Source: Podarcis gaigeae (taxonomy: Eukaryota). From it: a stretch of DNA of 64,000 nucleotides. The notes under the pieces are model-generated. The model had not been told where the DNA came from, made no database searches, and saw nothing but the letters and a program-made list of their open reading frames with translations. Positions 2,741-12,430 of the stretch are shown here, piece after piece. The position numbers were made by a program, and so were the translations under genes. The DNA lies in the NCBI GenBank assembly GCA_964106915.2, contig OZ066924.1; one strand, 5' to 3'. The stretch's first letter is position 1, and the number at the start of each line of letters is the position of its first letter.

Positions 2741-4900
2741 TTCTATACTACAAGTAACAGAAAATGTTGTTTAGTAAAAAGAAAAGACTTCTTGGATTTA
2801 TCAGAAAACTGGATTACTGCTCTCAAGATGCAATTTGTTGTTCCGATGAAGTGGTTGTTGAAGAACAGTAACTTTTTGTTTTGTTTTGTTTGGAGTCCAG
2901 TTCAAACACATTAGAGAAAACAGAGCATATTCTTCTACTCGTTCCATTATTTGCAGTTCCAACATTATCCAGAAACAGGTCTCTTTGTGCTCTCAGTATG
3001 AAAAATGGTTTGAATTCCTCTTAAATTAGAAAGGAAGGCATGAGAATAACAAGCCACAAATTATTATTATTTTTTTAAAACAAATTTGCATTCACATCCA
3101 CCATTGGGGGTGGAAACCATTTTTCCTTGAATGGACCACTGATTGAATGGTGTTTTTTTCTCCATCCTTGGAAGAGTGAAAGTTTTATATCCCTTCCGTG
3201 CAGTTCATTTTTTTTTTCAACAATGATGAAATTCTGCCATTCAGAACATTTTATATCATTCATTGTAACATTAGTACAGCATTCAAACTTATAAAGACAA
3301 TCACAGCTCAGTCATATTGAACATTCACCATTTGTCTCCTTAGAAATTATGAGGCATTTTCACTAGTGGTTATTCTGCAGAGGTTATTTCTACTATGGAG
3401 AGAAAATCATGCAGCTGAGGGACTTTATAAAAGAAAAAGAAGGAGTCTGCTTATTGCATAAAAGACTCTCCACTCCATCCCCCAAAGCCAGTATGAAACT
3501 GAGAAAGAAAATGAAAACCACAAAGCAATAATAAAAATAAATAATGTAAGAATCCAAAGGAGAAAAATAACAACCATGGCCTTGATATGAGTTGACCTTT
3601 CTCAAATGTTACAGCATAAAATGTTTAAATGCATTAAAGTATATCAAGACATTCATCTAAACAGTTGGGGACTATACATTTGGAAGTAAAGTTAAAAAGG
3701 GTAATGACTAGGAAAGTTACAGGGAATGTTTTGGAGCAAGAAGTGTGTTAATGCATACAGTTCTGTGCAAAATAACCATAAGGCATGGTTTTAGGATTCC
3801 CTTGAGATGTTTGAAGCACTTTGTTTGACCTCATGCAAATCTAATGGGGTAGAATGCTAGGTACAAGTCTGCAGATTTTTTTCCCCACAGAGCAGTGGGG
3901 GAAGTATATGTATATTCATTCAAATTCTAAAGAGAATGTCAAAATGGCTTTGTTCATCTAAGAAGAATCTCTACATCAAGGAAGCAAACTTTTTACAATG
4001 ACAACAACATCTATCTATCTAACAGCATTGTGAGGTCATAAAAATGGCCTGGGTTGAAAAGGTTGTGTGTCTGGATGTGCCCTGGGGCTTTTTAACACCC
4101 CCCCCTTACTACTGTGGCTTTTTGTATGAGCACATAACCCCCAGAGTGGTCCTGGAAAGTTGGAGGAGTGGGTGTGGTGGGAGGAGAAATCACACATATC
4201 ATAGTCCAAGCCTAGTCCAAAGTGAGTGGCTTGCAATTTTCATAAAGGCTTATGGTTTCGTATGCCAATCAGAATATGTTTATCAGGAGGGTTGGACATA
4301 TTTTTTCAGCCAGATTTTGGGTGGGATGGAAAAAGGTCAGCTCAGTGCAATGCATTTAATTGTTTTGTTCATCAGAGAGAGGTTCGAGTGCCTCATGTGA
4401 AAGCACCCAAGTCAAACAAGAATTCCCTCCAACACAAATTATTTCCTATCAGAAGCAGTTCAGCCATCAGAAGCAGATGAGGAAGAGTCACTGTGGTAGC
4501 TTCCTGGCAGGTGGGTCACTGTTGCTTACCAGAAGGCAGAGGTGCAAAGTGACAGACAGGTCGTCATGGTACAAACAGACTGACAGAGCCAATTGGGTTC
4601 CTTTGCCTCCCCATCTCCCTCCTCTTAAACAACAATGACCCACCTGTCAGGAAGTTGGCATCATGTTCGCTGAGCAGCTTCTTTTTCCTACTACAGAGAT
4701 GAGTTTCAAAGGCCAGAATGATCATGTTTCAAATATCTGCCAAACAGTTCTTAAGAGCCCAGCTAAATAGATGGGCTCAGGGTGTAGTCCTGTTTAGCTA
4801 ACTTTCATCTGCAACTGTCATCTGTAAAGTGCTGTCCCACAGGGAGAAAAAGGTGTCATACTCCAGGCCTAAAATATGATTGCATCTGATCTGGTTCCTG

Positions 4901-5840: not shown

Positions 5841-7302
5841 GTACCATTTCAAGAAGAGGAAATGAGGCAGGGACTGAACCAATACAGCCTTTGTGAGTCT
5901 CCAGATAAAATAATAGCAACACTTGAAAAGGCCTCTTTTCCTTTAACTTGGGACCTTCAACTCTGTGTCAGATGCTGGACATCCTTCCTTGGTTGACTTG
6001 GTTGAATCCAGAAAGCAATTCTGAATTGAATTAGAGTTTGCTGTGACAGACAAAACATACTTTACAGTAGGCAAATTGAATTTCTCTGACTGAGTGACTT
6101 TGCTGTGGCGCAACTCCTCGCAAGAAGATTTTCACATTATTGAGAGCTGGTAGGGTTTCCTTGCAAATAGCCACAAGCAGTGCACCCAGGGACACGACAA
6201 CAGGTTCCTTTGTCTGCCGCCGAGCCCTGCCTTTGCAGACAAACACTCTGCTGCCCCTCACATAAAATAAAATGAAAGAAGTACAAACCTCTATATGAAC
6301 TTCTCTTTGAGAAAAATGCTCCCTTGCCCCCCCAAACCTCAGTCTCAACTGGGTCTTGCTCAGCTAGTTTAGTATCTAGTATTACAGAATGCAATGTGTT
6401 TTTAATGGAGTGCAAAGACAGGAATGTTTTCTTATCTTAAAACCAGTTATGAATGGAGGCATGGCACCGGTTACCTTGATTCAATTATGGTTAGAAGCTC
6501 CATGCCAACTGCAGCAATTTTGTCCCTAACATGGAAAGGCACACAAGAAGCTCTCCGGTTTACATTTCCGACAGATTGGCAAAGCAACATCCCTGTTATC
6601 GTGGATATTGCCCTGCAGCTGGCACAAAACAAAGTCTCCAAATGCTTTCATTCTTGTGCTGGACGAGTGTAGCACATCTGTGTCATAAACCTAACATCTG
6701 TATCATATAGAGCAAAAAAAAAAAAAATGCATTTGCTTGGGCAGTGCTTAAGGAACTGGCAGCACATACAAGAAATAACTTCACACTTATTGAGTCTCAA
6801 ACTTTACCCAAGAGGATGGAGATTTTCTGATTTAATATTTAAGAAGAAAAAACGAAAACAGGACTGTTTTGCTTTCTTGGCTGTAGTCTCCTTTGGACAC
6901 AAAGGCAACGAAGCAAAACATTTGTCCATTTGCCTGGACATCTATTTTATACAGTCTTAAGACATCCTTAGAAAGCTTTATTTGGCTACCAAGCAAAGCA
7001 GTGATCCTTGTGAAATGTTCGAAATATGGGCATCCCTGGACACAGTTATGGCCTAATTACACACGACAATAAACGCAGTACTGGCAATATAAGGGTTTTA
7101 GTTGATTTAATGGTAGAGAGCTAGAACCCAAATTTAAACTGTGTGGGGCATAGAGAAAGTGGGTGGAGAAATTTTATTCTCCCATTCTCTCTCATGGACA
7201 CCCAGTGTGTAATTAAACTATAGAATTCACACCCACAGGTGATGACAGTGATGGCCACCTACCTGGATGGCTTCAAAAGAGGATTAGACAAATTAATTCT
7301 AG

Positions 7303-9024: not shown

Positions 9025-9566
9025 CCATACTTTCCCGCCTATAAGATGCCTATAGGATTGAGTCCATTTTGGGCGACTCAATTTTAAGAAAATGAGGGAG
9101 ATGGCCCAAAGTTGTTGAGCCTCTCTCCCCCCCCCCCCCCAGCTGCAGGCAGGAAACACTCCCTAGATCGTTTCCCACATGCAGCGGCATCAGGGGAAGT
9201 TGCGCTCCTGCCAGCCATCCAGTTGGCAGGAGCGCAACCTCCCCCAATGCCGTCGCATGTTGGAAATGACCCAAGGAGCGCCTGTCGTGCGCAGCATCAT
9301 CGAGGGAAGTTGCACTCCCACCAATGAGCTGGCTGGTGGCGCACAGCTTCTCTCCACACACCCCCCCAGCTGCAGGCAGGAAACACCCTCAGATCACTCC
9401 CTGCTCACTCTGGCATTGGGGGAAGCGGTGCTCCTACCAGCCGAATGGCTGGCGGCGCACTGCTTCTTCCCTCCCCCCCCATGCCACTATCCATGTATTG
9501 GACGACCCCGGTTTTTTGACGTGAATTTTGACTCAAAAAGCCTCGTCCATACACAGAAAAATACAG
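9025..9566. mobile_element. Tc1/mariner (pogo/Tigger-like) non-autonomous element with GC-rich, internally repeated hairpin units
   Basis: TA-flanked degenerate TIRs (ccatactttcccgcctataag / catacacagaaaaatacag). Ends match the shorter element at 33344-33515. Three related internal units near 9195, 9304 and 9420. Confidence 0.75.
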
Positions 9567-10298: not shown

Positions 10299-10349
<51 letters not shown>

Positions 10350-10351
<2 letters not shown>

Positions 10352-10558
10352 TTTCGTAGATTTTCACGGGTACAGGAATGCAGGTTTTGGTGTCCTCGGG
10401 TGTCTTCCCGTGTAAAAGTTGGGGTGTCTAGGCGACGTTTCGACGAGGTCTCACTCGTCATCTTAGCACCAGCCTGAAGATGACGAGTGAGACCTCGTCG
10501 AAACGTCGCCTAGACACCCCAACTTTTACACGGGAAGACACCCGAGGACACCAAAACC

Positions 10559-10563
<5 letters not shown>
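10350..10563. mobile_element. Penelope-like element (PLE) terminal remnant: inverted pseudo-LTR pair
   Basis: Perfect 87-bp inverted repeat 10378-10464 / 10477-10563 with a 12-nt spacer. Left arm extends to a PLE-type 3' end (cccgtgaaaatctacgaaagc on the minus strand). Embedded in (TA)n at 10303-10349 and 10563-10606. Confidence 0.8.
10472..10509 (+). ncRNA. Minimal type I hammerhead ribozyme-like motif
   Basis: CUGAAGA (10474-10480), U, helix II GACGAG/CUCGUC with UGAGAC loop (10482-10499), GAAA (10500-10503), C, GUC triplet (10505-10507). Helix I has only 2 clear base pairs. Confidence 0.6.
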
Positions 10564-10611
<48 letters not shown>

Positions 10612-12119: not shown

Positions 12120-12430
12120 AGAGGCCATACAACAGATGCTCTGCATGAAGAAGGTTCAGGACTCAGCCCCTGCTGTCTCGAAGTAGGCCTGGGAGGCTCT
12201 GAAAATGCTGGAGAGCCACTGTCAATCCATACAGACCAGCGGTTCTCAACCTGTGGGTCCCCAGATGTTGTTGGACTACAACTCCCATCATCCCTGAGCT
12301 CTGGCCTTGCTAGCTAGGGGTGATGGGAGTTGTAGTTCAACAACATCTGGGTCCCACAGGTTGAGAAAGGCTGATATTGACTATGCTGCGTTAGATGGGC
12401 CAGTGATTGATGTGTCAAAGGCAGCTTAAT
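12120..12430 (+). mobile_element. Old tRNA-derived SINE interrupted by a hAT MITE
   Basis: ctgcatgaagaaggttcaggactcagcccc..ctggagagccactgtcaatc [MITE] tattgactatgctgcgttagatgggccagtg..aaggcagctt. Confidence 0.55.
12237..12373. mobile_element. URR1-like hAT MITE with SPIN-like terminus
   Basis: 137-bp palindrome. Starts CAGCGGTTCTCAACCTGTGGGTC and ends AGGTTGAGAAAGGCTG. Imperfect 8-bp TSD atacagac/atattgac. Confidence 0.88.

Follow-up and report, generated by a model that had tools for sequence, protein, structure and literature searches.

A palindrome of two hammerhead-bearing ends of a young Penelope-like element, probably primed from both ends of a (TA)n target

Two inverted ends of one element in a (TA)n tract

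In the 64-kb stretch of Podarcis gaigeae DNA that we analysed (the window; contig OZ066924.1), two inverted 87-nt arms (10378-10464 and 10477-10563) that are 100% complementary and 12 nt apart lie between two (TA)n tracts (Table 1). An initial annotation had described a perfect 87-bp palindrome with CpG-rich arms, and both descriptions held: the arms were recovered without a mismatch, and an arm contains seven CpG dinucleotides at an observed-to-expected ratio of 1.19, compared with 0.28 for the whole window. Folding of the strand gave -186.3 kcal/mol (z-score -29), which none of 200 shuffled sequences equalled, and the 18-nt helix-II word of the hammerhead motif occurred twice, against 0.01 occurrences expected by chance.

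Both arms are identical, with no mismatch, to a full-length copy (L031) of a Penelope-like element (PLE). Numbered from the A of the element's ORF ATG as +1, the left arm and the tail beside it together make up -2 to +112. The tail had escaped the initial annotation, as had the origin of the 12-nt spacer, which is element sequence of the right arm. The arms meet at a blunt junction, between 10464 and 10465, without microhomology. We regard the identity of the element, the coordinates of the arms, the presence of one tailed and one untailed end, and the blunt junction as practically certain. The locus as a whole is probably a 5'-truncated insertion comprising two head-to-head copies of the hammerhead-bearing end of the element. 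Most copies that we fetched sit within (TA)n and one (L046) sits within (GATA)n, which suggests that the flanking microsatellite is the target and not part of the element.

Table 1 Features of the palindromic locus, in window coordinates
Feature	Position	Strand	Element position	Remark
(TA)n microsatellite, left part of target	10303-10349			Read from sequence
PLE tail, 28 nt	10350-10377	-	+85 to +112	Left arm only; identical to full-length copy L031
Left (tailed) arm	10378-10464	-	-2 to +84	Core truncated, without C3-U4-G5
Right (untailed) arm	10465-10563	+	-14 to +84	Includes 12-nt spacer 10465-10476
Minimal type I hammerhead	10472-10509	+		Features as in the available text of PMC4209133
Helix I, 2 bp	10472-10473/10508-10509	+
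Core box CUGAAGA	10474-10480	+
ORF start ATG	10480-10482	+		Inside hammerhead core
Extra U	10481	+
Helix II, 6 bp	10482-10487/10494-10499	+
Core box GAAA	10500-10503	+
C17 of GUC, preceded by ACGU	10507	+		Cut predicted after C10507
(TA)n microsatellite, right part of target	10564-10606			Read from sequence

The initial annotation had assigned the arm to a PLE pseudo-LTR (pLTR), and the arm does map to an element with reverse transcriptase (RT) and GIY-YIG domains. Copy L031 is a 2,965-bp unit flanked by direct pLTR repeats, with an open frame of 1,000 residues. A Pfam profile search of this frame matched RVT_1 (E 7e-16) and GIY-YIG (E 7e-4; 20.2 bits, under Pfam's 22.6-bit cut-off), and the GIY..C..C..YIG signature and downstream histidines of the CCHH motif were seen by eye; a PDB search matched just four distant RTs. 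The element has the RT ORF, GIY-YIG domain, partial-tandem pLTRs, inverted 5'-truncated copy and one-sided tail of endonuclease-bearing (EN+) PLEs. According to the available text of PMC8557442, a CX2-5CxxC finger in the linker separates Neptune and Nematis from Penelope and Poseidon. By eye, we found no such finger between RT and endonuclease in the L031 frame; by this linker criterion, the element probably belongs to the Penelope/Poseidon clade. Neptune, our first guess from the (TA)n target, was dropped on the same ground.

Within L031 1012-4014, the hammerhead has a double coding role: its sequence provides the start codon of the ORF and, in another frame, the last codons and stop of the ORF of the upstream unit, which ends within the motif. 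On contig C17, loci L095-L097 contain tandems of at least three near-identical 2,965-bp full units, some of them head to head, and are candidate source loci.

Elsewhere in the window, two older imperfect inverted repeats (9159-9278, 55 nt, 82%; 12260-12351, 36 nt, 94%) are probably MITE-type repeats. The minus strand of 666-2381 encodes the 3' portion of a LINE ORF2, spread over two frames (RVT_1, E 5e-6), which we take to be L1-like.

The hammerhead motif

The + strand motif was the only match when the window was scanned for minimal hammerheads, and both core boxes, the 6-bp helix II and the GUC triplet named in the initial annotation were all located within it. An Rfam check returned no hammerhead family among 24 matches at E<=10; these matches were driven by the hairpin and by TA, every one of them under its gathering score. 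With the minimal hammerheads (min-HHRs) of metazoan PLEs, as given in the available text of PMC4209133, the motif shares the core boxes, the extra nucleotide at 9/10.1, G10.1-C11.1, a long helix II and ACGU, as well as palindromic positions 15-16 and an NUH site. Its helix I has 2 bp, like a D. virilis variant in the same part of that source, in contrast to the 4-5 bp of the commonest min-HHRs described there. The shortness of helix I, which had been raised as a caveat, is also a property of the full-length element, where the next positions are A-C, C-U and C-A mismatches and where the predicted pair probability of helix I is 0.02 with native flanks included and the hairpin left out. An extension of helix I over a CACCA bulge was weighed and ruled out, as the native upstream sequence is unpaired. 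On these sequence features, the hammerhead is the element's own minimal pLTR ribozyme motif.

The initial annotation had read the locus as one intact and one broken core, the latter missing its core G on the opposite strand. The right core is indeed intact and the left one incomplete, but the cause is truncation and no G has been deleted: the left arm simply stops within the core, and the minus-strand 'CU' is the reverse complement of the first two bases of the right arm, so the left core lacks CUG. As the two cores are in opposite orientation, a transcript contains one sense core and cannot form a dimer in cis. Opposite-strand min-HHR pairs 100-700 bp apart are noted in the part of PMC4209133 available to us. 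Non-LTR retrozymes, in the accessible portion of bioRxiv 10.64898/2026.07.22.740005, are likewise PLE-derived hammerhead units, and are recognized by at least two hammerhead units in tandem in the same orientation; with one sense core per strand and no such tandem, the locus is not a non-LTR retrozyme.

End pairing and inner-end coupling in a young family

The locus is one of many. A 27-nt core word matched exactly at 7,037 sites of the 1.5-Gb genome, with none for a control, and a looser core pattern had 6,760 matches, of which 99 of the first 100 listed were identical, bearing out the expectation that copies share a conserved core. A search for covariation turned up no other family with the core pattern in the genome (one match, against one for a control). 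Over overlapping loci, mismatch to L031 was 0.15%, and therefore the family represents a young burst; with no mismatch at this locus, the claim of a recent insertion fits. The special status that the initial annotation had given the locus did not survive, because 121 loci resemble it in having two arms that end no more than 30 nt from each other's ATG, and the genome has thousands of each end type: 3,585 terminate at +84, and another 4,293 extend into the tail, up to 192 of them reading through to the ORF, which gives about 3,600-4,100 per type. Taken alone, the locus is unremarkable debris of a single very young PLE burst. Such a burst, with thousands of insertions and several multi-unit full-length tandems, provides a natural record of how inverted ends and tails form. 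Close variants of the element are present in organisms A, B, D and E (runs X1, X15, X17, X20 and X21-X24); among the changes listed for these organisms, none was fixed between about -13 and +118 and none was fixed in the core, whereas both flanks differ.

To describe how ends combine, we listed 181 ends on contig C1 (0-24.6 Mb), 146 of which form 73 divergent pairs. A tailed end faced an untailed one in 66 of the 73 (50% expected, p 1.7e-13), leaving seven pairs that violate the one-tail rule; in an overlapping mapped set, 68 of 75 pairs were mixed. Inner ends were also coupled: 28 of 68 pairs had them <=35 nt apart (mean 5.6 and maximum 16 under permutation). Once pairs with two short arms were removed, 13 of 51 were still close (permutation mean 2.6), and the rank correlation of inner ends was 0.20 (p 0.15). 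In close pairs of this first set the untailed arm was longer in 20, shorter in 5 and equal in 3, with a median difference of about 10 nt (12 nt at this locus); the 40 far pairs among the 68 showed no length bias (20:20).

Because the 35-nt cut-off had been picked post hoc on the first set, we fetched 18 new loci, chosen by their untailed end, as a held-out set, from which 15 junctions at 14 loci were scored after excluding three loci with wider or composite junctions and one without a partner. All 15 junctions had a tailed partner. Nine of the 15 were close (mean expected 1.5), including pairs at about -980, -1050, -880 and -500, and the untailed arm was the longer in every one (9:0), giving 29 of 37 pooled close pairs with a longer untailed arm, 5 with a shorter one and 3 with equal arms.

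The junctions themselves, sampled at about 90 sites mostly on contig C1, vary between loci across 0-2.7 kb. Among 68 that were typed, 39 had 1-7 nt of microhomology, 3 had overlaps of 13-15 nt, 6 were blunt and 20 carried added bases. Arms tend to end near the hammerhead, with 28 of 136 ending at -45 to +5 compared with 4 at -96 to -46. The distribution of inner ends has its peak precisely at -4, within CUGAAGA; a script placed 10 of 30 short arms there, and a count by eye over 50 listed junctions gave 33 of 100. A second cluster lies at -35 to -41, with a TATA-like TATTTATA about 30 nt upstream of it. In two short tandem arrays, both of those tested, the junctions were unique to their own locus on both strands, with three matches each.

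Origin of the inverted arms

The explanation that accounts best for the whole, and which is probably correct, is a young 5'-truncated PLE insertion with head-to-head arms primed from both target ends. The element's RT-endonuclease would cut the (TA)n tract and prime cDNA from both ends of the target. For the steps of synthesis we lean, with somewhat better than even confidence, towards staggered starts on one RNA, one cDNA beginning at +84 and its partner at +112 to +119, with both running towards the 5' end of that RNA (at this locus reaching -14 and -2) and their 3' ends then being joined and filled in. Whether a dimer of the RT-endonuclease loads both active sites on that RNA, at +84 and about +113, with the enzyme at +84 about 10-20 nt ahead, is in our view an evenly balanced proposition; if true, a single step would account for the inverted pLTR, the tail on one side only and the coupling of the inner ends. 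The absence of length bias in the 40 far pairs, the correlation of only 0.20 and the 7 of 73 rule-breaking pairs count against the preferred explanation, and fold-back of an untailed cDNA would also yield shared junctions and a longer untailed arm. RNAs trimmed to about -4 to -20 at one end and +150-180 at the other would give short palindromes like the one here, and if trimmed RNAs were copied end to end or as circles they could give rise to new tandem hammerhead arrays, that is, to retrozymes. In L1 twin priming, too, both target ends prime and microhomology joins the products, but each arm covers a different stretch of the RNA; at the present locus the same 3' end is repeated in the two arms, offset by the tail.

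Under fold-back, a cDNA primed at +84 would snap back and copy itself while on the other target end a short cDNA begun at +112 supplied only the tail. The bias in arm length is what this would produce, as the untailed arm should be longer by the length of the loop (29 of 37 close pairs; 12 nt here); identical junctions on both arms, seen in the two tandem arrays, and the 3 of 68 junctions with 13-15-nt overlaps also fit, and self-priming at palindromic junctions is proposed in the accessible part of PMC3846280. Yet fold-back of an untailed cDNA cannot yield a longer tailed arm, which 25 of 68 first-set pairs have, often by hundreds of bases. Moreover, of 50 short junctions listed, 15 are by eye perfect palindromes without a loop, some long pairs (L163, L157 and L046) differ by just 1-5 nt, and the blunt join at this locus offers no microhomology to prime a snap-back. 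We consider fold-back unlikely. We give a still smaller chance, and consider it quite improbable, that each protomer used its own RNA and that short arms coincide only since a 5' end near the hammerhead is common to many RNAs. The hot spot of arm ends, the exact -4 end in a third of short arms by script and the lack of a significant rank correlation in longer pairs are as expected from two RNAs, but close pairs also occur away from the hot spot, at five times the expected number in the first set (13 of 51) and again in the held-out set, and the array junctions are locus-unique on both strands. A palindromic MITE moving as a unit, or an assembly artefact, has almost no chance of being correct: terminal symmetry is perfect and a few short junctions recur at several loci, but the arms are made unequal by the tail and match a retroelement 3' end, inner junctions differ between loci, and loose ends of inverted junctions are present in contigs of other runs.

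It is very improbable that the locus is a working ribozyme element that cuts host transcripts at C10507, whether on its own as a monomer or aided by the PLE protein. In its favour, the right core is intact, the hammerhead of PAc (a Poseidon element of Anolis carolinensis) cleaves when its protein is present (PMC11167929), and D. virilis PLE hammerheads in the available text of PMC4209133 also have a 2-bp helix I. Against it, a single min-HHR showed no cleavage in that same text, helix I is hardly predicted to pair even without the hairpin, and none of 136 arms ended at +29, the cut site. The initial annotation's caveat that the hairpin would compete with ribozyme folding proved apt, as forcing helices I and II costs a predicted 55.8 kcal/mol against the hairpin and helix II is predicted to form in a transcript of the locus with a probability of about 3e-21. 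Because read-through RNA folds into the 87-bp hairpin, the ribozyme is predicted to be a silent passenger at this locus. In four fragmented libraries of organism B, RNA starts and ends showed no pile-up at the cut site, a result without bearing on cleavage.

The preferred reading, priming from both target ends, is in line with the behaviour of PAc. In vitro, PAc cuts and extends both strands, uses two RT start sites that bound the tail, one of them at +111-118, and inserts without needing its hammerhead; it is also predicted to dimerize (PMC11167929). PAc and the present element share a single ORF for RT and GIY-YIG that begins at stem II of the hammerhead in the pLTR, an AT-rich target and two 3' end points bounding a tail, one of them at about +112-119. 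The main text of PMC11167929 reports no tailed/untailed pairing and no coupling of inner ends. EN+ PLEs have the same layout in the available parts of PMC8557442 and PMC3846280, with an inverted 5'-truncated copy, a one-sided tail of 30-40 bp and microsatellite targets, so that these features are, as far as those parts go, already known as typical. The same parts describe the tail as 'often' one-sided and attribute it to resolution by the endonuclease, or the inversion to self-priming on an antisense template; the part of PMC8557442 at hand names how PLEs form inverted ends and tails as unresolved. Compared with those descriptions, one-sidedness is counted here (66 of 73) and comes with a length bias. 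What our analysis adds to the known layout is therefore quantitative, namely one-tail pairing, coupled inner ends and the length bias of the untailed arm, and the pairing and coupling counts give predictions for the PAc in vitro system. Our literature search, which extended to sources other than subscription Penelope papers and the figures of the PAc supplement, found no paper with counts of tail pairing or inner-end coupling.

Among RNA data sets on record, none was listed that contains this stretch. In raw RNA reads of the related organism B (L031 860-1156; runs X21-X24), nearly all A>G changes came from reads of one orientation and T>C changes from those of the opposite one, with strand-specific changes at 30 of 33 places in X23 and 34 of 34 in X24, both core boxes included. 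At core A +23, in the GAAA box, the counts were 33/87 versus 0/40 in X23 and 46/103 versus 0/70 in X24. In this other species, and for a multi-copy family read at the RNA level rather than against matched DNA, the pattern suggests ADAR-like A-to-I editing of such hairpins. By its predicted fold, the 87-bp hairpin of RNA from our locus is likely to be an ADAR substrate, and the burst spreads many long perfect inverted repeats, likely ADAR substrates, across the genome. Three organism B reads with two different starts carry a back-joint from +180 to -26, which may come from a genomic array.

Short tandem arrays of the hammerhead-bearing end, with units of 167-177 nt, were seen at L091 (1032-2405, contig C17), L092 (921-1523), L093 and L094, and single or short repeats of this end at L078, L080 and L085. 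The units span about -4 to -21 to about +146 to +183, each with its own junction; these arrays are retrozyme-like and could in principle form dimers. L092 begins near +27, a single case. At L093, an arm end at +29 had been considered as a trace of cleavage and was rejected: a TIR element interrupts the arm there and the arm continues to about +20, so it gives no evidence of cleavage at +29. This TIR element (1249-2871), which we presume to be hAT-like, is 1.6 kb long with an 8-bp duplication, is nested in the PLE arm and is younger than its host copy, and carries a captured fragment of a CDK5 activator (PF03261, E 1e-8).
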